Shown in pieces: positions 820 to 44,473 of a stretch of 57,624 nt of DNA. A model generated the notes under the pieces. That model had not been told where the DNA came from. It did not search any database and saw nothing but the letters and a program-made list of their open reading frames with translations. This DNA is from a virus (Duplodnaviria > Caudoviricetes). Location: positions 1 through 57,624 of IMG/VR virus record IMGVR_UViG_3300025357_000014. One strand, written 5' to 3'. A program made the translations under genes and the position numbers. Every line of letters starts with the position of its first letter. Position 1 is the first letter of the stretch.

Positions 820-863
820 GCCCCTCATGTATAATCATATAGGTTATATGTGGGGGGCTTTAT
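820..863 (+). terminator. long G-U-containing hairpin followed by TTTAT (possible terminator or structured RNA)
   Basis: GCCCCTCATGTATAATC pairs with GGTTATATGTGGGGGGC; short U tail only. Confidence 0.35.
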
Positions 864-1970: not shown

Positions 1971-2579
1971 ATGAGTACACTGCGTAAGCTGTGTAGTTGT
2001 GTAGTTCTTGCTGCTACGGCGAGTACGGTACCACAAGCGAGTGCAATTGTGAATCCTGGGCAACCCCAGGTGGAACCAATTACACGTGCTGTTGCTCCCA
2101 CTGATGTGTTGTTTAGTACGGAGGTTATATCTCCCACTATTCTGACATCATACAGTGATAGCCAGCCGCTTGCAGTACCTACAAAGCCATGGTTCAGGTT
2201 TACACCTAGGTATTTACCTGGTGAGAACCCTGAGCTGCAGCAATGGGACACAACAGACACAGATGCAACAGCAACATGGCCTGATGCTGCTGATCCAGTA
2301 CGGCAATTGCCGATGGCGATTCAAGTGAAGTTTGCTTGCATTCGTTATCACGAGAGCCGCAATCACCTACACTCGGTTAACATAACGAGTGGTGCTGGTG
2401 GTTGGTATCAGTTCACCCCGTACATCTGGGGGTATGCAGTAGCACAACTACCTGGATTGCCTGCATCAATTGCGCAAGCAACTGGTGCTCAGCAGTCTGA
2501 AGTAGCTGTGTTTTACTACAAACGTAATGGTAGTCTTTACCCTGAATGGGGTGGGGACGCTGGCGTTTGTAACTTGTAG
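1971..2579 (+). CDS. secreted Rpf-like lytic transglycosylase
   Basis: N-terminal signal peptide; C-terminal CIRYHESRN...GAGGWYQFTPYIW...ATGAQQSEVA...W...C matches the resuscitation-promoting-factor domain with its catalytic Glu (ES motif). Confidence 0.8.
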   Translation: MSTLRKLCSCVVLAATASTVPQASAIVNPGQPQVEPITRAVAPTDVLFSTEVISPTILTSYSDSQPLAVPTKPWFRFTPRYLPGENPELQQWDTTDTDATATWPDAADPVRQLPMAIQVKFACIRYHESRNHLHSVNITSGAGGWYQFTPYIWGYAVAQLPGLPASIAQATGAQQSEVAVFYYKRNGSLYPEWGGDAGVCNL

Positions 2580-2581
2580 TA

Positions 2582-2612
2582 AATGGTATGGGTTCCACCA
2601 TTAACGGGCCCA
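2582..2612 (+). ncRNA. H-type pseudoknot motif, variant copy
   Basis: Stem AATGGT/ACCATT; loop TGGGTTC pairs with downstream GGGCCCA. Confidence 0.6.
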
Positions 2613-2638
2613 CTTACCCAAACAAGAAAGGCAGTAAA

Positions 2639-3070
2639 ATGACAAGTAAGAAAATGAGTGAGATGATTCAAGATACTCTCGAGTTAATCGATAGCATTCT
2701 TAATCGTCCTGCTACTAGGAGTCAGGTACTTTCAGTGATCAAGCACATTGAATCACTAGAATCTAAGTCTGAATCTAAAGCAGCAGTAGCCACTGAGACT
2801 AGGATAGTTAAGCCTAAGCCTAAAAAGCAACGGTCTTACATATCTTGGCGTGACCACACCTTTGAAGGTTGGTTTACCAATGTCTTGGATGGCAATGCAC
2901 ATCTTATCACGTACACTGAGATGACTAACTTAGTACCAGAATGGCGTAAGATTAACCGTTCTAGTATGCGTAACCGATTCCGTACGGAAGCCGAACGTCG
3001 TGGTTACAAATCAGTGACTGTTAGGTTTGACAACGAAGAGAAAATGATTTTCGTTCAAGCTTTAATGTAA
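2639..3070 (+). CDS. hypothetical basic protein, possibly DNA-binding
   Basis: Start moved to ATG 2639 after ACCCAAACAAGAAAGGCAGTAAA; K/R-rich. Confidence 0.7.
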   Translation: MTSKKMSEMIQDTLELIDSILNRPATRSQVLSVIKHIESLESKSESKAAVATETRIVKPKPKKQRSYISWRDHTFEGWFTNVLDGNAHLITYTEMTNLVPEWRKINRSSMRNRFRTEAERRGYKSVTVRFDNEEKMIFVQALM

Positions 3071-3084
3071 CCTAGTTTAACTAG

Positions 3085-3144
3085 GTGGAGTAAGTGGTAT
3101 CACAGATGGGAATCTGGGAGGGGTTCAACTCCCCATACTCCACG
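3085..3144 (+). ncRNA. tRNA-like element 1 (no anticodon loop)
   Basis: Acceptor-like GTGGAGTA/TACTCCAC, D-loop-like AGTGGTA, CAGAT-GGGA-ATCTG hairpin in place of the anticodon arm, T arm GGGG-TTCAACT-CCCC. Confidence 0.6.
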
Positions 3145-3249
3145 ATGGTATCTTACACATACCAGGCAGTAACAGGATGCGGGTGGACGCAGCCCTGACA
3201 CAATACAGAAACCACATACCTAAAACAAGAAGAAAGTAAGGAAAAGATT

Positions 3250-4005
3250 ATGAGTGAAGCAACCTACGAAGGCATGCCTATCCCACAGTGCTACATTGAC
3301 ATTCAAGATGCTTTGGAGTCTGGTACAGATCGTATCATTCTCTACGGTCGTCCTGGTACTGGTAAGACTTACTCCGGCCTCACAGCTGGTGTGTCTGATC
3401 CAAGTCAGTCTGAGCGTCTAGTATGTACTGAGGACATGACATCAGCCGACGTTTCAGGTGCATTCATGCCTAACGTAAGCGGTGGGTTTGAGTTCCTACC
3501 TGGTGCAGCTTTGCGTGCTTGGACCAACGGTACTCGTTTAGTTATTGACGAGATCGATAAAGCTGGCGGTGACGTATTCGCCCAGCTCCTAGCATTCACT
3601 GACACCGTAGACTCAGCATCATTTACACGACCAGACAATGGGGAAGTAGTTCGTCCTAAGCCTGGTTTCTCTGTTGTGATGACCTCTAACATTGAGGATC
3701 CACGTGACCTGCCTACTGCACTTAAGGACCGGTTCCCGTTTGCAATCGAAGTCAATGCAGCACACCCTGCTGCCTTGGTTAAGTTGCCACCACAGCTTCG
3801 TCTGTTGGCTGCAACTATGATTGCTGCAGAGCCTGGTCAACGTGCTAGTTTGCGTGCGTTCTATGAGTTCAATCGTCTACTATCTGGTGGTCGGTTCTCT
3901 CTTGAGCGTGCAGCTAACCTGATCTTCGGACCAGTGTTAGCAACGCAGATCATACGCTGCATGTCTGTTGGCACATTGGAGCCTGAATTCACACTCACGG
4001 TGTAA
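3250..4005 (+). CDS. MoxR/CbbQ-type AAA+ ATPase
   Basis: Walker A GRPGTGKT, Walker B LVIDEID, sensor TSN, arginine finger ALKDRF. Confidence 0.88.
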   Translation: MSEATYEGMPIPQCYIDIQDALESGTDRIILYGRPGTGKTYSGLTAGVSDPSQSERLVCTEDMTSADVSGAFMPNVSGGFEFLPGAALRAWTNGTRLVIDEIDKAGGDVFAQLLAFTDTVDSASFTRPDNGEVVRPKPGFSVVMTSNIEDPRDLPTALKDRFPFAIEVNAAHPAALVKLPPQLRLLAATMIAAEPGQRASLRAFYEFNRLLSGGRFSLERAANLIFGPVLATQIIRCMSVGTLEPEFTLTV

Positions 4006-4008
4006 ATC

Positions 4009-5493
4009 ATGAGTGACGAACTAATGGATCCAATTATTCCACTAGCTGATGTTGTGTCTGCATTTCGTGATGACATAACTACAACAACTAAGTGGCAAGT
4101 GCAAGCAACAGCAGGTGAGTTCGGTGCTGGTGTTGACTTTGCTGCTGGGATTCTAGCTGTCCCCCTCTCGGGTGACAGTTATTCTCAGCAAGTACAGTTA
4201 CGCAAGCTAGTTGAACTACGTTGTTCTCCTACTGATCCAGCTTTATACAAACAAGTAGCTACCTTTTATCAGGAACAAGGTATCACTGAGAGTGTTCTCC
4301 GTGCTGCCGAAGCTGCTCGTATCTCAGCTATCACTGAGAAGTTTGCTGTACAGTTTGGTTTGAAATCAGAACCAGATGGATCAGAGAAGAATCGTGGCAA
4401 GAATCTAGCATCTGCTAAGTCTGCTGCTGCATGGGACCAGGCTGTTGAGTTCACACTTAGACATCATGGTACGAAAGCCTTTGACTCGTTCGCGAGTGGT
4501 GTTCGTGCCGTTAATCCTGAGTGGAGCAAGTCATTGCGTGCTCTCAACAAGCGACTCACTAGTACACTAGCTGGTTCAGCACGTGGTCTCGGTGACACTA
4601 GTCCAATGCAATTTGGCCATGGTGTTACTGGGCCTGCTGGTTTTGCCAACTCTGTGTATGCTGCTAGTGTTGTACGTGACTACTTGTCAGATGGATATAA
4701 AGCTCCTGATGACATGCGAAGAATGCGTCAAGCACTAGAAGAGAAGCGTGCTGAAAACTATGGTGATGTTGATCCTAAAGATTTATCTGAGCGAGGTAAA
4801 TTAACTCCGCAAGAGATGAGTGTTGACGACGATATTCCTGATGGTTTTGAGTTTAGTGACGACTCTGACTTTGGTAAGCTACGTGTTTGTGACACGTTGC
4901 CACTAACAGTTGAGGTTCCAGGTTACATGCATCGTAAACGTAAAGCAATGACATCTGGTCGTCGCATTGCGTATCCATCTCGTATGCTTACTGACCCACA
5001 ACGTCGTGTGTTCGGCACTAAGGTTCGTGTTAAGGGTGGTATCGTAGTCATTGACATCTCAGGTTCTATGAGTCTGAGTCAAGATGACATCGAAGCCATC
5101 GTTAACAACGCACCTGCTGCTGTTATCATTGCGTACAGTGACTGTGGCGATGACCCTGAGCCTAACGCTTGGGTCTTAGCTAATCGTGGCTGGCGTGTTA
5201 GGGAAGTAGGTAACATCGGTGGTCATAACAATGGTGTTGACGGACCAGCTCTTACATGGGCTATTCGTCATCGTCATCGTAATGAGGAAATCATCTGGGT
5301 CACTGACGGTCACGTTACTGGCATCAAAGGTGGTTCCAATGCACAACTAGCTGTTGAGTGTGCTAAGTTAGTTAAGAAACACAAAATCATTATGATTCCT
5401 AGTGTTGAAGAGGCTGTTAAGCAGTTCAAATCTGGTAGGTTTATTAATAAACCTCACGGTTATGTACGCGAAGCCTTGCTTGGCAAACTTTAA
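4009..5493 (+). CDS. vWA-domain protein, partner of the AAA+ ATPase
   Basis: MIDAS motif IDISGSMS and downstream VTDG; adjacent to the MoxR-like ATPase. Confidence 0.82.
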   Translation: MSDELMDPIIPLADVVSAFRDDITTTTKWQVQATAGEFGAGVDFAAGILAVPLSGDSYSQQVQLRKLVELRCSPTDPALYKQVATFYQEQGITESVLRAAEAARISAITEKFAVQFGLKSEPDGSEKNRGKNLASAKSAAAWDQAVEFTLRHHGTKAFDSFASGVRAVNPEWSKSLRALNKRLTSTLAGSARGLGDTSPMQFGHGVTGPAGFANSVYAASVVRDYLSDGYKAPDDMRRMRQALEEKRAENYGDVDPKDLSERGKLTPQEMSVDDDIPDGFEFSDDSDFGKLRVCDTLPLTVEVPGYMHRKRKAMTSGRRIAYPSRMLTDPQRRVFGTKVRVKGGIVVIDISGSMSLSQDDIEAIVNNAPAAVIIAYSDCGDDPEPNAWVLANRGWRVREVGNIGGHNNGVDGPALTWAIRHRHRNEEIIWVTDGHVTGIKGGSNAQLAVECAKLVKKHKIIMIPSVEEAVKQFKSGRFINKPHGYVREALLGKL

Positions 5494-5503
5494 TCACGTG
5501 TTT

Positions 5504-5598
5504 GTTGGTATCTTATAAACCAACAACTGGGGTGTCTATCAAGCGACACCTCAGTACCATGCATTACATTGTAATGCAGTGTATCCAAATGGATACTG
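5504..5598 (+). other. chain of four intergenic hairpins
   Basis: GTTGGT/ACCAAC, ACTGGGGTGTC/GACACCTCAGT, TGCATTAC/GTAATGCA and GTATCCA/TGGATAC. Confidence 0.5.
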
Positions 5599-5622
5599 TA
5601 ACCAAAATAACAAGGAGTAAGT

Positions 5623-6033
5623 ATGTCAGAAGAAGAGTTCAACTTCGGTGATCTCGATCTACAATTGGATGAGAGTACTCAAGCGCGTATTGCACACGCT
5701 GAGTTTCTTGAATCAATTAAAGATTGGGGTTCTACCATGGGATTGATTGCTGTTCCATTCACTCACATGGCTCAGGCTGTTGCTATTGCTGAGGAAGATG
5801 ATACATCAGAAGATGAAAAGCACAAGTTATACAAACGTGTTGCAACTGCAATGCCAACTGGTGTTGCTATTGTTGTTGAGCATATCAATGAGTTGTATAC
5901 TATGTTGCAAGTGGAAGCCGTAAAAATACTCGGTGAACCATTCATGTTCCATGATAGTCATCACCCACATTGTGATGGTACCCGTGAAAACTGCGGTCAC
6001 CAAGATCACTACAAATCCGATACCAATGAGTAA
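5623..6033 (+). CDS. hypothetical acidic protein with His/Cys-rich C-terminus
   Basis: 136-aa ORF, AAGGAG SD, HDSHHPHC...CGHQDH tail. Confidence 0.75.
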   Translation: MSEEEFNFGDLDLQLDESTQARIAHAEFLESIKDWGSTMGLIAVPFTHMAQAVAIAEEDDTSEDEKHKLYKRVATAMPTGVAIVVEHINELYTMLQVEAVKILGEPFMFHDSHHPHCDGTRENCGHQDHYKSDTNE

Positions 6034-6046
6034 GGAAGGAGGAACC

Positions 6047-6205
6047 ATGGAAGAAACACTCAACCGATTGAAAGCAGAGACTCAGCAGATGAGAGAGATG
6101 GTAGCACAATCAACCACTCTTGAAACTGCTCAGGCTATGGCAATACGCATGATCAACCTAGTTGATACAGTTGTGGAATTGCTAGTTAAGCAATCAGTTA
6201 AGTAG
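6047..6205 (+). CDS. small helical hypothetical protein
   Basis: ATG 6047 follows AAGGAGG; MEETLNRLKAETQQMREM... Confidence 0.65.
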   Translation: MEETLNRLKAETQQMREMVAQSTTLETAQAMAIRMINLVDTVVELLVKQSVK

Positions 6206-6792
6206 TTGAGGACAAGAACGTTAAGGCTCTACTAATCTATTAAGTTAGGTTATGTTAGAGTGCTTTTCCTTCTTGTTGTTGCATCTACATAAGCCTATCT
6301 AAACAAGTTAGTGGGCCTTATCTATCCATAGCAGCTTGCAACCTGCTGTGGCGTTAGAACACCACGCGAGTGTGTTCAACCTACATGATTTGTCATGAGT
6401 CATGTAGGTTCTGTTGTGGTACTACCAGTTAATCGCCTTGCCAGTGTGCGCTTTGATAGGCACGAGAGCCACGCAATGATACTTGTACGCCACACACTCA
6501 GCCTGAAGGGAAGTTCAGGTAGGAAGCGCATCCTTAACAGCACTATGAGGTCTAGGCCACTGACCCAAAAAACGTGGCAAGCCTATGCATGCTGTCATGG
6601 TGTGCATAGGCACTCAGCCTAACTTATGTACTGACTACGTCTATGAGATAAGTTAGATGACTCATCATGTGGGGAAGCACATGGAGGTCAGCCTAAACCT
6701 TAATTAGCGACCTGTTGGTGGTGTAGGTGAGCCAACGACCTGAGTGGTGTGAAGGTAACCACTAGCCTTGTGAGTGAGCTTTTGTAACTCTC
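6206..6792 (+). ncRNA. candidate large multidomain structured ncRNA (~590 nt)
   Basis: No credible ORF; more than 10 helices, nested multibranch closure (6307-6321 with 6545-6564), GNRA loop, two GGGAAG loops and long-range pairing 6437-6443/6575-6581. Confidence 0.7.
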
Positions 6793-6820
6793 TGTCCTGG
6801 GTATGACATTAAAGTGCCCA
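6793..6820 (+). ncRNA. H-type pseudoknot motif, copy 2
   Basis: TGTC-CTGGGTAT-GACA-TTAAAG-TGCCCA. Confidence 0.75.
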
Positions 6821-6855
6821 CTTAAACATTACCCAAATAGAAAGGCAGTAAGATT

Positions 6856-7143
6856 ATGCGTATAGAAGGAAGACACAACGATGATAAGACTGAGATTCAA
6901 ATCATTGTTAAAATAGAGGGTGAAGGAGAATTTGAAGCCTTTACTCATTTCTTTCAAGAAATGATTCAGAACATGGCTAGTGCTGCGGATGCTCTTCTCA
7001 TTGATCCAATCAATGAAAAAGTATACAAAGGCGAAGACGTGACTGATGAAATGGTTCTGGATGCAATGAAAGATTTTGCTATTCAGAAAGCAACTGAAGC
7101 CAACCGTGATTCGGATCCAAGTATGCGTATCAATTTCATCTAA
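6856..7143 (+). CDS. hypothetical protein
   Basis: 95-aa ORF with an ACCCAAATAGAAAGGCAGTAAG leader. Confidence 0.75.
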   Translation: MRIEGRHNDDKTEIQIIVKIEGEGEFEAFTHFFQEMIQNMASAADALLIDPINEKVYKGEDVTDEMVLDAMKDFAIQKATEANRDSDPSMRINFI

Positions 7144-7156
7144 AGAAAGGAATAAC

Positions 7157-7540
7157 ATGTCAAGAAGAATATCATGGCGTAAATCGCCTGATGCTGATAT
7201 CTGGCGTGCTAAAGTTCCACAACATTACAAAGTTGAATGTAGACTTGTAATACATGCTGGTGTAGTTAACAGTTCAGTAATGAATAAGAATGCTAGACTA
7301 GAAGTACAAGTACCAACAACAGGTAGGAATTATAAAACCGTAATAATTGTAGAATTTTATAGCAGTTGGTGGGCCAAAGAGTATGTAGATTCTTTACTTC
7401 AAGTAATGTATTTTTATGATTTTGATAGTAAGGATCATGCATTTCAATGGTTCATTGATATTTTAAGTAAAGTACAAAAAATAGATCAACCTGAAACATC
7501 AGAAGGTAGTTGGACTAGTCTAACTGGTTGGTCTAGATAA
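7157..7540 (+). CDS. hypothetical protein
   Basis: Start moved to ATG 7157 after GAAAGGA (MSRRISWRK...). Confidence 0.7.
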   Translation: MSRRISWRKSPDADIWRAKVPQHYKVECRLVIHAGVVNSSVMNKNARLEVQVPTTGRNYKTVIIVEFYSSWWAKEYVDSLLQVMYFYDFDSKDHAFQWFIDILSKVQKIDQPETSEGSWTSLTGWSR

Positions 7541-7546
7541 TAAAAA

Positions 7547-7604
7547 CAGAAAGCCCGGGAGGGCTCTTGGTGGAGTTGACCGTCCCCAACTGATGAAGAG
7601 GTCA
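7547..7604 (+). ncRNA. type II hammerhead ribozyme (predicted cleavage after C7566)
   Basis: GAAA 7549-7552; stem III GCCC-GGGA-GGGC; CUC cleavage triplet; stem I TTGG(T)GGA/TCCCCAA; CTGATGA 7590-7596; loop I TGACC pairs with 3' GGTCA. Stem II is vestigial. Confidence 0.7.
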
Positions 7605-7629
7605 TAACCAAAAGTAAGAAAGGAAACAT

Positions 7630-8298
7630 ATGTCTAAGGACATTTTGTGGATTGCTATGCGCGATGGTAAAGGCTGGGCTTCCAGTCGTACTCGTGACAT
7701 GGTAGACTTAGCCTTTACGGTTAGTAAGTATGACAAGAAAAACGGTGGATCGTTAGTTGTCATTCGTAAACCTAATCGTGATGATGATCCAAAGTCGCGT
7801 GCGACTGTGGTGATTGGCATGGTCTACTATGACTCAGTATCTGAAGCTAAGGCTGCAGTTAAAGCTGCTGTTGACAATGCTAACATGAGTAGTTCAAATA
7901 AGGAGAGTGCTCGCACTACACTATTAGAACAGATGTTAATAACGTCTAACACCAATGCTAATGCAATTATTGTTATTGGTCATAAGGTAAGATCACAAGG
8001 TCATTACAGTTCAACTACTGTTATGAATAGTGTTAATACTACAGTTGAAAGCACAATGCAGGAGGAAGTTGAAGCTGAAATAGAGCGTAGACTAGAAGCT
8101 GCACCAGATGCTATGCAACAATGGTTAGACATGACTAAAGATCTTACTGAGACTTTTAGCATGACCAAAGCTGTAGCAGATGTACAAGCAGTAGTTGAGG
8201 TTGCCTTTGACCCTAGCACATGGCAAGAAGGTCAGCCTTACCCATCAGAGTACATGCTGGTGGGTGGTCGTCTCATGAAGATGGAATGGCCTAAGTAG
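7630..8298 (+). CDS. hypothetical protein
   Basis: 222-aa ORF with an AACCAAAAGTAAGAAAGGA leader. Confidence 0.8.
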   Translation: MSKDILWIAMRDGKGWASSRTRDMVDLAFTVSKYDKKNGGSLVVIRKPNRDDDPKSRATVVIGMVYYDSVSEAKAAVKAAVDNANMSSSNKESARTTLLEQMLITSNTNANAIIVIGHKVRSQGHYSSTTVMNSVNTTVESTMQEEVEAEIERRLEAAPDAMQQWLDMTKDLTETFSMTKAVADVQAVVEVAFDPSTWQEGQPYPSEYMLVGGRLMKMEWPK

Positions 8299-8307
8299 TA
8301 TCGTAGT

Positions 8308-8336
8308 ATCACCTGGGTATGTGATTAAACTGCCCA
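8308..8336 (+). ncRNA. H-type pseudoknot motif, copy 3
   Basis: ATCAC-CTGGGTAT-GTGAT-TAAAC-TGCCCA. Confidence 0.75.
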
Positions 8337-8365
8337 TTCAAACTAAAATAAGTAAGGAATATATA

Positions 8366-8761
8366 ATGAAAACATATTTTATCAAAGCTGGCACCGATGT
8401 TGATATTGATGTTATTCCATGTGATCAAATAAACTCATATGATTTCATCAAAGAAAGCATAGGTGGTGGTACATTTGATTGTATTGCTTTACCTAGTTTA
8501 GGTATAGACATCTGGATTGATGATGATGGTAAGTTAGTTGAGGATCCTAAAATAAATCTGCTTGGTACTGCACTCTGGATGAAAGAGTACGGTCCAACTG
8601 ATACAATTATGGGAAACATCGTTATTACTGGTGGTGTTGATGATGATGGTAATACTATTGGCATGACTGAGGAAAAGGGTAAAGAAATAATTGCCTTAGC
8701 TAAAGTATTTGTTGATGCACTTACCAATCAAATAATGGATGAAATTATACTAGGAAAATAA
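8366..8761 (+). CDS. DUF3846-like protein
   Basis: IGGG.FDCI...IWIDDDGKL...N...T.L...DTIMGNIVITG..D.DG.T pattern; start moved to ATG 8366 after TAAGGA. Confidence 0.7.
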   Translation: MKTYFIKAGTDVDIDVIPCDQINSYDFIKESIGGGTFDCIALPSLGIDIWIDDDGKLVEDPKINLLGTALWMKEYGPTDTIMGNIVITGGVDDDGNTIGMTEEKGKEIIALAKVFVDALTNQIMDEIILGK

Positions 8762-8768
8762 TAAAGCA

Positions 8769-8816
8769 GCCCTAGTCTGGTGATGAAGTAAGCTAGTTCA
8801 ATTCTAGCTTAGGGCG
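8769..8816 (+). ncRNA. tRNA-like element 2 (acceptor + T arm, no anticodon arm)
   Basis: 7-bp GCCCTAG/TTAGGGC stacked on 5-bp GCTAG-TTCAATT-CTAGC; 16-nt connector containing TGGTGATGAAGTA. Confidence 0.7.
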
Positions 8817-8865
8817 CTCCCAAGTAGGGAATGTAGTATAACCAAAAACAATAAGGAGTAAGCAC

Positions 8866-9414
8866 ATGGGTTTAGACCAGATGCTATTTGCAGTAACAAG
8901 CCATCCCGATAACCACGACTTCGGATACGATCCTGATGCTCAGTATCGTCAGTTTGGTAGTTGGCGTAAGCATCCCTATCTTCAAGGTTGGATGGAAAAA
9001 CTATTCAATACTAAGGCAGATGCTCAAGGTTATGTAGGTCATGGTGAATACCATGATGGTATTGAAGTTATGGCGCGTGAAGCTGATGGCAATGAGATGA
9101 CACCTGAGATGATGCAGCAAGCATTAGATTCTGATTCTGAAATGCTTAAGAAGATTAAACAAGAACAGTTTACTTCTAAAGCTATTCATACAACTAAGGA
9201 TCGCATCTTTAATCAGCAATGCGTCAGACTTAACATAGGTGATTTAGATCAACTAGAGATGGCTATTAAGTTAGGTGAGCTACCAGCAACCAAAGGATTC
9301 TTCTTTGGTGATGATGCTAGCGAACACTATAAAGAATACGATTTAAAAGTTATTGAAGCAGCTCGTCAAGCTGTTAAACTAGGTCTAGATGTATACTACG
9401 ATTCATGGTGGTAA
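8866..9414 (+). CDS. conserved phage hypothetical protein (MGLD...WRKH...GFFFG...YYDSWW type)
   Basis: Motif pattern of a widespread uncharacterised phage family; TAAGGAG SD. Confidence 0.75.
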   Translation: MGLDQMLFAVTSHPDNHDFGYDPDAQYRQFGSWRKHPYLQGWMEKLFNTKADAQGYVGHGEYHDGIEVMAREADGNEMTPEMMQQALDSDSEMLKKIKQEQFTSKAIHTTKDRIFNQQCVRLNIGDLDQLEMAIKLGELPATKGFFFGDDASEHYKEYDLKVIEAARQAVKLGLDVYYDSWW

Positions 9415-9447
9415 CATCTAACAAGGTTGCATTTGGGTAATGCATCA

Positions 9448-9498
9448 GTCCCAGCCAGTCGGTGGTGAAGTATGGTGGTTCGACTCCACCTTGGGACG
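9448..9498 (+). ncRNA. tRNA-like element 3 (acceptor + T arm, no anticodon arm)
   Basis: 7-bp GTCCCAG/TTGGGAC, T arm GGTGG-TTCGACT-CCACC, connector containing GGTGGTGAAGTA; followed by the same 17-mer GCTCCCAAGTAGGGAAT as element 2. Confidence 0.72.
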
Positions 9499-9539
9499 CT
9501 CCCAAGTAGGGAATACATAAAACAAGTAAGGAGAATAAC

Positions 9540-9950
9540 ATGGGTGACCGTGGACATGTAGAGATTATCAGTGAGGGAGATCCAACACTGTATTACTACA
9601 CACACTGGGGTGCTTCAGGTTTACCAACAGATGTTGCTGATGCTTTGCATCGTGGCAAAGGACGTTGGGATGACAGTGAGTATCTCAATCGTATCATCTT
9701 CTCAGAAATGATTAAGGATTCTGTTCTATCAGATACTGGGTATGGTATTGGTTTCCACCAGCATGGTGATGTATGGCGTATTGTAACAATAGATCACGTC
9801 AACAAAACTGCTGGTATTAAAGAAATCAACTACGATAAAGTAGATTGGTCTAACTACAATGAAGATGATGTAGTATGGGATTGGAAATTAGAACCAGTAC
9901 CATTTGAAGTGTTTGTTTATCTTAATAGTTTAGTTACAGCAAAGGAATAA
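9540..9950 (+). CDS. conserved phage hypothetical protein
   Basis: MGDRGHV...YYYTHWGA...RWDDSEYLNRIIF; TAAGGAG SD. Confidence 0.75.
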   Translation: MGDRGHVEIISEGDPTLYYYTHWGASGLPTDVADALHRGKGRWDDSEYLNRIIFSEMIKDSVLSDTGYGIGFHQHGDVWRIVTIDHVNKTAGIKEINYDKVDWSNYNEDDVVWDWKLEPVPFEVFVYLNSLVTAKE

Positions 9951-9952
9951 TC

Positions 9953-10117
9953 ATGGGTAAAAAACTAGACAAAGCTTTCTATCAACTGAGCAATGAAACT
10001 CGTCATCACATTAACTTAGCAATGGCTAAGCAAGAAGATTACGAAAATGGATTTGCTCAGGGATTTTCGGAAGCACTACGCATAGTAGCAAAGATAAGAG
10101 AGGAGGAGAATGAGTAA
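9953..10117 (+). CDS. small hypothetical protein (54 aa)
   Basis: Hand-translated MGKKLDKAFYQLSNETRHH...IREEENE; AAGGA SD. Confidence 0.6.
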   Translation: MGKKLDKAFYQLSNETRHHINLAMAKQEDYENGFAQGFSEALRIVAKIREEENE

Positions 10118-10485: not shown

Positions 10486-10911
10486 GTGAACCAAGTACGC
10501 CGCAACGCTCTCTATAACTTACAATCCAAGTATGTCGAATCTAACCTATGTTGGGTATGGACTGCTGCCATTAGTTCTGATGGCTACGGAGTATTCCGTA
10601 TGGAGGGTAAGTTATGGAGGGCGCATAGGGCGTCATATACTCTATATAAGGAAGATATACCTAAGGGTTTGCAGATAGATCATTTGTGTAGGAATAAGCT
10701 ATGTGTTAATCCTGAACATTTAGAGGCTGTTACACCTAAAGAGAATAGTAGGAGAGCTGCTGCTTTTAAGACCCATTGCCCCCGCGGACATATCTACACT
10801 ATCTATGGTAGGGTATGGGGAAAGAGATCTAAAGCTAAATACTGTATTCAGTGTAACAGGGATAAGACGAAGGCTCGACGGGCCTCCGCGAAAGTCGATA
10901 AAAATAAGTAA
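10486..10911 (+). CDS. HNH endonuclease
   Basis: CWVW...GYG...AHRASY...IDHLCRNKLCVNPEHLE plus a C-terminal KTHCPRGH...CIQC Zn finger. Confidence 0.88.
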   Translation: MNQVRRNALYNLQSKYVESNLCWVWTAAISSDGYGVFRMEGKLWRAHRASYTLYKEDIPKGLQIDHLCRNKLCVNPEHLEAVTPKENSRRAAAFKTHCPRGHIYTIYGRVWGKRSKAKYCIQCNRDKTKARRASAKVDKNK

Positions 10912-14597: not shown

Positions 14598-15194
14598 TTA
14601 CCAATCTGAATCTAAATTAAAGTAATCGTTGCGCCAGTCGCTGTCATCATAATTTACGTTACCATGTTTGTTAGCCATCATAGCAGCGAAAGATTCTTTT
14701 GCTTTTTCTTCTGAGGCATGGCGACTGAGTACCTTACCTGTACCTTTTTGTAGGATGACCCATTGATCTCCCTGCTTCTTGATGTACTGGTTTGCAGTCT
14801 TTTCGCTAGCATATCTTTCATTGAATTCTACGCTTGCTTCTTTTTCACCACCGCCATGCTTCTTCACGATGCCAGCGGCCCATGATGCTCCAGCATCCCC
14901 ACCCCAAGCTAGCCATGCTACCTTACCTGGGCTGTTGTTGTCCCAATCTTTACCCTTCTTATCTACACGGTGACGTGAGAAATAAGAGTGCATACGCTTC
15001 ACAGTGCTTAGACTAAGAGTTTCACCTGCAGCGAGTTGATGCGCACGTCCACGACCTACGCTAGTAAAACCATCTCCAGCTTTTCCAGCTTCAATTAGTT
15101 CTAGAGCATGCTTAGCAGCTGATTGCACACCTGATGGTGGCTTAAAACCTTTTTCGCTTTTTTCTTCTTTAGCATATCTTTCATTAAATGACAT
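14598..15194 (-). CDS. probable head-associated protein
   Basis: PP...A..ALE...T.VG..RA.QLA...TVKRM.SYFSRH...S.G.VAW.AWGGD.G..WA domain, seen in phage head-morphogenesis proteins; carries the FNERYA motif twice. Confidence 0.65.
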   Translation of the reverse strand: MSFNERYAKEEKSEKGFKPPSGVQSAAKHALELIEAGKAGDGFTSVGRGRAHQLAAGETLSLSTVKRMHSYFSRHRVDKKGKDWDNNSPGKVAWLAWGGDAGASWAAGIVKKHGGGEKEASVEFNERYASEKTANQYIKKQGDQWVILQKGTGKVLSRHASEEKAKESFAAMMANKHGNVNYDDSDWRNDYFNLDSDW

Positions 15195-44400: not shown

Positions 44401-44473
44401 TGCCCCAGGCAAGACTCGAACTTGCAACCTGCGGGTTAGAACTCCGATGCTCTATCCGTTGAGCTACTAGGGC
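44401..44473 (-). tRNA. tRNA-Arg(TCT)
   Basis: GCCCTAG-TA-GCTC AACGGATA GAGC-A-TCGGA GTTCTAA CCCGC-AGGTT-GCAAG TTCGAGT CTTGC-CTGGGGC-A; A20 Arg identity element; no encoded CCA; two anticodon-stem mismatches. Confidence 0.85.

Follow-up and report, generated by a model that had tools for sequence, protein, structure and literature searches.

Processing signals that imitate tRNAs are already known. Ojala et al. are said to have described tRNA punctuation in animal mitochondria in 1981, and in 1987 McClain, Guerrier-Takada and Altman reportedly introduced model substrates of bacterial RNase P that consist of an acceptor stem and a T arm. The mascRNA/MEN-beta family (RF01684) is eukaryotic and nuclear, and its fold, a complete cloverleaf whose anticodon loop is poorly conserved, serves as a cutting signal for RNase P and RNase Z. 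Plant mitochondrial t-elements are, according to Forner et al. (2007; PMC1920247), cut by RNase P and RNase Z, their ends being the ends of mRNAs, and some of the excised ones are stable and have C or CCA added. Perreault et al. (2011; PMC3088659) report that hammerhead ribozymes flank single prophage genes and propose that these cut long phage RNAs into gene-length mRNAs. Here we describe three tRNA-like elements that lie between early genes of a tailed virus (Duplodnaviria; Caudoviricetes), in the IMG/VR record IMGVR_UViG_3300025357_000014, whose whole stretch of 57,624 bases is called the window below. These elements, numbered 1 to 3 by position, belong to a large unannotated family, and the balance of the evidence tips slightly towards their being cis-acting mimics of the top half of a tRNA, which would punctuate early phage mRNAs and be cut by host tRNA-processing enzymes. 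What is new in comparison with the systems above is a dedicated downstream hairpin, the modularity of the gene units and a slot-for-slot interchange with hammerhead ribozymes.

Structure of the elements

Element 2 (8769-8816, plus strand) has an acceptor of seven pairs, GCCCTAG/TTAGGGC, the last of them G-T, a linker of 16 nucleotides (nt) that contains TGGT, and a T arm in which a stem of five base pairs (bp), GCTAG/CTAGC, carries the loop TTCAATT; its discriminator is G8816. Element 3 (9448-9498, plus strand) is built in the same way, with a 7-bp acceptor GTCCCAG/TTGGGAC, a 19-nt linker, a 5-bp T stem GGTGG/CCACC with the loop TTCGACT, and the discriminator G9498. In element 1 (3085-3144, plus strand) the acceptor has 8 bp (3085-3092/3136-3143), the linker is AGTGGTATCA, the T arm (3120-3134) has a 4-bp stem with the loop TTCAACT, and the discriminator is G3144; the stack thus counts 8+4 = 12 pairs, the same total as in a tRNA. 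The middle of this element holds AGTGGTA and the hairpin CAGAT-GGGA-ATCTG (3103-3116), capped by GGGA, where a tRNA would have its anticodon. None of the three carries CCA. The traits noted in a preliminary description made from the letters alone, including the tRNA geometry with differing stem sequences and the discriminator G, are all indeed there. The same is true of the connector GGTGRTGAAGTA common to elements 2 and 3, whose only exact matches in the window are at 8779 and 9461, and of the identical 17-mer GCTCCCAAGTAGGGAAT that follows both elements, which has two exact matches, at 8816 and 9498, where 0.07 would be expected.

Each element is followed by a small hairpin on the plus strand. 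That of element 1 (3146-3164) begins 2 nt past the discriminator, as does that of element 2 (TCCC-AAGTA-GGGA, 8818-8830), which lies within the 17-mer; the second copy of the 17-mer places the same hairpin after element 3, at 9500-9512. Two further plus-strand hairpins precede elements. The palindrome CCTAG-TTTAA-CTAGG (3071-3085) stands directly 3' of the stop codon of the open reading frame (ORF) at 2588-3070 and abuts element 1, and could possibly protect the 3' end of the upstream mRNA; TGCAT-TTGGGTA-ATGCA (9428-9444) ends 3 nt before element 3 and has a presumptive role only. The folding energies of the elements are moderately better than those of shuffled sequences (z -1.5 to -3.2).

Relationship to known RNA classes

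The preliminary description had expected tRNA finders to fail on these elements, and ARAGORN calls only one tRNA in the window, a tRNA-Arg(UCU) at 44401-44473 on the minus strand, which is also the only RNA that Rfam reports there at gathering scores. This gene, which has no encoded CCA, lies between the genes of a minus-strand operon, begins right after the stop codon of the upstream gene and is followed by the next start codon about 25 nt on. Since a phage tRNA without encoded CCA sits inside an operon, host tRNA processing must already act on phage polycistronic RNA. Elements 1 to 3 do not form the cloverleaf, with a D arm and a 7-nt anticodon loop, sought by ARAGORN and by the Rfam tRNA model (RF00005, cut-off 29 bits). 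With the Rfam threshold relaxed to E values up to 10, element 1 reaches 22.2 bits with tRNA-Sec and 17.5 bits (E 9.9) with mascRNA-menRNA (RF01684, cut-off 42.5 bits), both far under the cut-offs, and elements 2 and 3 match neither at that threshold.

The acceptor/T stack of a tRNA (7+5 bp with a TTCRANY loop) is present, in element 1 with 8+4 pairs. So is the minimal substrate of RNase P, a 12-bp acceptor/T stack with a T loop, which is seen in elements 2 and 3 (7+5), in element 1 (8+4) and in a related locus, L062, as 7+5 pairs without a linker. The 3' RCCA for pairing with the P15 loop is lacking, ACCA occurring in only one of the 19 copies considered below (in record G007). As in plant t-elements, a tRNA-like fold with a conserved T arm stands beside a protein gene in what the operon layout suggests is a long transcript.

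Two other classes were considered and set aside. A domain like that of transfer-messenger RNA (tmRNA) is contradicted by the absence of G3-U70 (pair 3-70 is C-G in 10/10 distinct copies), of a tag and of any tmRNA call by ARAGORN, and a remnant of an attP site is ruled out by the 5' acceptor strand, which is present and covaries. With a relaxed acceptor/T-arm descriptor, eight matches are found in the window, where the null mean is 9.3; the geometry by itself is not significant, and the case rests on relatives instead. The extra matches to this descriptor (6303-6393, 7425-7461, 5364-5443 and others) were put down to chance; that at 6303-6393 recurs in close relatives, only as a portion of a conserved non-coding block described below.

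Conservation and covariation among related phages

Six related records (G001, G002, the L040 contig, G005, G006 and G007) came from pattern scans and from searches of viral contigs that were anchored on proteins, and a covariance model, R1 and then R2, was built from their copies of the type of elements 2 and 3. It finds two to five copies in each record, none of them outside the early region. In the window, element 2 scores 67 bits and element 3 scores 63.2 bits, and the next match is the 3' half of the tRNA-Arg with 15 bits. The covariation alignment comprised 11 copies (10 distinct) from five records, and 99.1% of its 110 cells are paired, with changes on both sides in 9/11 stem pairs (31 cells). 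Neither the pairing score nor the covariation score was reached by any of 500 shuffles, and with slid partners pairing is 51% at most. Across the copies, the T loop GTTCRAYTC, a TGGT in each linker, the 12-bp stack and the pair C3-G70 (10/10) are kept; the acceptor and T-stem sequences vary freely and the middle ranges from 10 to 38 nt. Mini forms keep their slots even between records that share only 47-70% identity in their genes. On this comparison of sequences, elements 1 to 3 are neither chance occurrences nor products of simple decay.

Arrangement of the gene units

The layout around the elements was mapped for 19 copies from the six records, one of which, G005_a, has uncertain borders. 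Every copy (19/19) is intergenic and lies on the sense strand, starting 6-56 nt (median 8) past the upstream stop codon and standing 32-106 nt (median 50) from the next start codon. As discriminator, 15 copies have G and four have A; C comes next in 17/19 copies, and then mostly T. A downstream hairpin is found in 19/19 copies, its first paired base at +1 to +5 and its loop often GGGA or GTGA, and 3' of it come an A-rich spacer, the ribosome-binding site and the start codon, in this order. The 7 nt preceding many elements in G001, G005, G006 and G007 read TAAGGTA, TAGGTA or GTAAGTA and contain extra stop codons.

The units so composed come and go as wholes. The DUF3846 gene with element 2 and its hairpin (window 8343-8845) is present in the window, in G001 and in others, and is cleanly absent from G002 and the L040 contig, which are very close relatives; there, a promoter-like motif (window 8312) runs directly into the ribosome-binding site of the following gene, here called geneA. 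Likewise, G006 has, compared with G005, an additional element and gene between fam7 and the ATPase gene considered below. The promoter-like motif, CCTGGGTATG-N5-AAASTGCCCA, is found three times in the window (8312-8336 on the plus strand, 314-338 and 6796-6820) against 0.01 expected, and is conserved in G001, G002, G005 and G006; the copy at 8312 lies upstream of the operon of DUF3846, geneA and its neighbour geneB. It is probably an early promoter with TATGAY as its -10 element and, with only three copies in the window, the early genes are probably read as a few long transcripts.

The slot upstream of the ATPase gene and hammerhead ribozymes

Element 1 serves an AAA_5 ATPase gene (3250-4005, plus strand), and the slot before this gene is the most instructive one. 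Five records have a mimic there: G000, G002 and the L040 contig have element 1, and G005 and G006 have mini elements. In G001, the slot is occupied by a tRNA-like gene, called by ARAGORN as tRNA-SeC(tca) and scoring 61.8 bits with Rfam, which has an anticodon loop of 5 nt. The mini element of G006 has the acceptor (ACTGCAG) and T arm identical to those of G001, with 13 nt in place of the middle. A bare 12-bp hairpin (7+5 bp) is found in G008 (locus L062), and in G007 a type II hammerhead (49 bits, E 4.4e-7) that ends 11 nt before the start codon. It follows from this series that the elements descend from tRNA genes which lost their D and anticodon arms but kept the stack of acceptor and T arm, and that a self-cleaving ribozyme can substitute for them; the interchange between mimic and hammerhead points to cutting of the RNA between cistrons. 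According to the preliminary description, full tRNAs at these loci in relatives would have meant simple decay. Such a tRNA does exist, in near-full form and at the locus of element 1 only, in G001, but its 5-nt anticodon loop and the retention of acceptor and T arm in G006, where the middle is deleted, do not fit that view, and G001 and G006 are a case of reduction with retention.

At 80 further loci related to that of the ATPase gene, ARAGORN found no tRNA in the 450 nt upstream of the gene (80/80), model R2 found no copy (all 14 of its matches fall in 8/12 loci of geneB) and, for the 20 of the 80 loci that were compared with Rfam, nothing was reported at gathering scores. The element at the ATPase slot is therefore confined to a small clade.

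The three type II hammerheads of G007 occupy three gene gaps (L174:12956-13017, 15055-15116 and, on the minus strand, 10718-10779); the two besides that of the ATPase slot score 37.4 and 37.3 bits, the cut-off being 37. One hammerhead of G005 (L172:12876-12938, plus strand) scores 31 bits and is below the cut-off. An odd GAUAAC core is common to G005 and G006. The window itself has a diverged hammerhead-like motif at 7547-7604 (plus strand), in the corresponding gap, 7541-7629, between the ORFs at 7076-7540 and 7630-8298. Its parts were recognised by alignment to the Rfam-positive hammerheads of G007 and G005: GAAA, a stem III with a GGGA loop, a CUC site, stem I, CUGAUGA and a pseudoknot between loop and tail, stem II being down to one G-C pair. 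The early operon of G007 also contains a real tRNA with a long variable arm (L174:6475-6561, minus strand; Rfam 40 bits), just after the relative of geneA.

Distribution in other phages

The pattern ATGGTYGTAR-N4-7-GTTCGAYTC occurs at 101 or more viral loci. Among the 84 distinct matches listed, 68 have at least 4/5 T-stem pairs and at least 6/7 acceptor pairs in register, compared with 4-11 of 84 in displaced controls, and 17 have perfect 7/7 acceptors, of which the controls have none. The loci of this wider family range in G+C content from 27% to 72% among the matches listed. In 53/68, the 45 nt upstream contain the end of a same-strand ORF, against 32/68 in the antisense control, which is a weak test.

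Unannotated copies are present in the Gordonia phages Morgana, Cafasso, Aleemily, ObLaDi, VanLee and MakoManhole, in the Mycobacterium phages Indlulamithi, Journey13, Phlei and SWU2, and in the Streptomyces phage Dagobah; in Morgana, MakoManhole, Phlei and Dagobah they lie between genes of the same strand. Morgana (L277; PP537962.1, 77307-81358, minus strand) has eight model matches, of which the six inside the stretch examined occupy all six consecutive, non-overlapping gaps between genes 161 and 153 (6/6). These six copies share a tail made up of A-CG, a GNRA hairpin, the conserved spacer GGCACGGCACCCAAC, a ribosome-binding site and the start codon. Four of the cultured-phage loci gave no Rfam match at E up to 0.1, and an AT-rich member of the wider family, L203, had no match in the cultured-phage collection. 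A full-text search of the main body of papers found none on tRNA-like minihelices between phage genes; the intergenic repeats reported in the genome announcements of Vardy and CaiB are different ones (a 50-mer resembling a promoter and a motif close to the ribosome-binding site), not these elements.

Proposed function and alternative explanations

If the elements are cut in cis, they would be transcribed inside long early mRNAs, each folding into a 12-bp stack of acceptor and T arm with its T loop, and the GG of the linker would probably close the elbow. Host RNase P on the 5' side, RNase Z or a similar enzyme on the 3' side, or both, would recognise this mimic, and a cut at the element would separate the upstream from the downstream cistron. 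The new 5' end of the downstream mRNA would then lie 1-2 nt ahead of the small hairpin, after which come the A-rich spacer and the ribosome-binding site; the hairpin may protect the new 5' end, and the ribosome site would be kept open. Elements of this kind would act as punctuation and as insulators, and promoterless genes could therefore be added or lost as units of mimic, hairpin, ribosome-binding site and ORF. The suggestion in the preliminary description that these are processing signals like mascRNA is favoured by the comparative evidence as far as processing goes (the elements are conserved, covary, keep only the 12-bp stack and a linker with GG, the portion of a tRNA that RNase P and RNase Z read, are intergenic and on the sense strand, and share a slot with a hammerhead), but membership of the mascRNA family is not borne out, with element 1 at 17.5 bits against 42.5.

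Several observations sit awkwardly with host cleavage. The base before the acceptor is mostly A in the elements, and U is the commonest in bacterial pre-tRNAs; a hairpin that begins 1-2 nt past the discriminator might hinder a 3' endonuclease. Only three of roughly 25 early gene gaps in the window contain an element, so this is not a general rule for every cistron of the window, and its hammerhead-like motif (7547-7604) has no match to RF02276 (cut-off 37 bits) at E up to 10. Moreover, the number of further pair types, one of five covariation measures, was not above that of shuffles (281/500), and the covariation alignment was fitted to the model and leans towards structure.

A role in trans, the other option of the preliminary description, has to be considered, in which stable RNAs of 45-60 nt, cut out or made as such, would be decoys or sponges for enzymes that read the acceptor end or the elbow, for example defence toxins of the host that modify or cut the 3' ends of tRNAs, the enzyme that adds CCA or those that modify the T loop. 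Enzymes of this sort bind precisely the acceptor stem, discriminator, T loop and elbow-like GG, copy number can be high, as in the eight matches of Morgana, and the idea is compatible with processing, as excision would free a small RNA. We nevertheless regard it as improbable, since the acceptor sequences differ among copies and phages without a conserved identity set beyond the invariant C3-G70, no defence or counter-defence gene is linked, and neither the strict coupling to the hairpin and ribosome site of the next cistron nor replacement by a hammerhead, which frees no tRNA-like RNA, would be expected of a decoy. It seems similarly doubtful that the elements are uncleaved structural insulators, whose fold, together with the next hairpin, would stop exonucleases, make the translation of neighbouring cistrons independent or leave the ribosome site free of pairing. 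Their constant position, just past a stop codon and before hairpin, A-rich spacer and ribosome-binding site, would suit such a function, as would their only moderately favourable folding energies; however, a plain hairpin would suffice for it, and the T-loop sequence, TGGT linker and 12-bp length are kept across at least 68 distinct viral loci, which points to recognition by tRNA enzymes, while the interchange with self-cleaving ribozymes argues for cutting.

Borders of gene cassettes at the DNA level, with the RNA fold incidental, are a much more remote prospect. Promoter-stem-loop repeats of T4-type phages and integron attC sites have been proposed as recombination or cassette-border repeats, and repeats that promote gene swaps would account for units that come and go, such as DUF3846 with element 2, absent from G002 and the L040 contig, or the extra unit of G006, and for the 17-mer common to elements 2 and 3. 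The G-T pairs, however, arise only when the sense strand is read, and the T-loop motif is specific to one strand; the covarying stems diverge in sequence, which leaves little homology for recombination, and the early region has no linked integrase or recombinase. We find it just as hard to believe that the elements are functionless, decaying tRNA pseudogenes, or terminators or attenuators without a U tract. The near-full tRNA in the slot of element 1 in G001 could be read as decay, as could GCCCTAGT, the first 8 bases of both the tRNA-Arg(UCU) and element 2, and hairpin terminators without U tracts have been reported in Actinobacteria. Decay, though, does not explain why both stems are maintained by compensatory change, why mini forms persist in their slots despite the divergence of the genes, or why no full tRNA was met with upstream of the ATPase gene in any of the 80 further loci; and as for termination, no terminator-like site was seen at the elements, and one in every gap would silence the downstream genes.

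Cleavage in cis by host enzymes would, if confirmed for RNase P or RNase Z, mean that tRNA punctuation is not limited to organelles, and that a widespread strategy of double-stranded DNA phages exists as a second way, beside self-cleaving ribozymes, to split operon RNA. It would account for dozens of conserved gaps that lack annotation in cultured phages of Gordonia, Mycobacterium and Streptomyces, give annotators a new class of feature that tRNA finders miss, and supply the builders of synthetic operons in Actinobacteria with compact insulators of natural origin. As the elements are present in cultured phages with laboratory hosts, the idea is directly testable. A bolder version, to which we attach only a modest chance, is that phages of Actinobacteria, and perhaps others, use modular punctuation in which mimics of about 41-60 nt, interchangeable with hammerheads, mark each promoterless unit, and in which excised, CCA-tailed minihelices also build up and affect the tRNA-end enzymes or the defences of the host.

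Genomic context

The window has an estimated completeness of about 40% and a G+C content of 39.7%; its genes are on the plus strand within 1-12.6 kb and on the minus strand in the remainder. Its gene content, which includes a terminase, tail and baseplate genes, a DnaE-type polymerase, RecA, two WhiB genes and an Rpf-like domain, is in keeping with a large actinobacterial phage, probably from fresh water. Among the genes of the window, none for a tRNA-processing enzyme was found, and megablast and blastn searches with window positions 2500-10000 gave no match in the phage collection. The genes next to elements 2 and 3 are all on the plus strand: the DUF3846 gene (8321-8761), the real start of which is probably downstream of 8321; geneA (8866-9414), which encodes 182 amino acids of no family and has element 2 on one side and element 3 on the other; and geneB (9540-9950; 136 amino acids, phrog_31860), with an element upstream in 8/12 related loci. 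The tie of geneA and geneB to the elements is one of synteny only.

Two other regions of the early segment stand out. A strong terminator-like hairpin of 17 pairs with a T-rich tail is found at 820-858 (plus strand), in a 336-nt gap after the ORF at 431-703. Positions 6205-6855 form a non-coding block of about 650 nt that is better conserved than the surrounding genes, with nucleotide identities to G005 and G006 of 78-86% over 100-350 nt. Some stretches of it are invariant, and hairpins with GGGAAG loops, each with GAGG after it, recur; a shared reading frame is broken by an indel, and the ORF at 6395-6622 is probably no gene. The block, which has no Rfam match, may encode a large non-coding RNA or serve as a regulatory region or an origin.

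Comparison with described systems

Each of the described systems shares part of the design of the phage elements. The model substrates of RNase P have the acceptor stem stacked on the T stem-loop (12 bp) and a short linker, but they are laboratory constructs with a 3' RCCA, whereas the phage elements are natural and have R-C-Y and a hairpin instead. In animal mitochondria, tRNA-shaped units between cistrons are likewise cut marks; those units are working tRNAs, whereas the phage elements have no anticodon arm. With mascRNA, the proposed likeness is that of a tRNA-like fold within a longer RNA as a cutting signal, and the difference lies in the full eukaryotic cloverleaf, to which element 1 is only distantly similar and elements 2 and 3 are unmatched.

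Type II hammerheads of prophages (PMC3088659) resemble the elements in position: they too are found in the gene gaps of phage operons, directly before the ribosome-binding site, and the hammerhead of G007 stands in the very slot of element 1; they are self-cleaving, however, whereas the mimics would need host enzymes. The closest proven analogue is that of the plant mitochondrial t-elements, which keep the acceptor stem and the T arm (GGTTCRANYCC) and stand beside protein genes in long transcripts, but which, as PMC1920247 describes them, are found in organelles, in small numbers per genome, and mostly have the size of a cloverleaf. Those of the phages, by comparison, are 41-60 nt long, carry a conserved short linker, are joined to a hairpin and ribosome-binding site of their own and make up a large phage family, in which cleavage of the kind known from t-elements is predicted.

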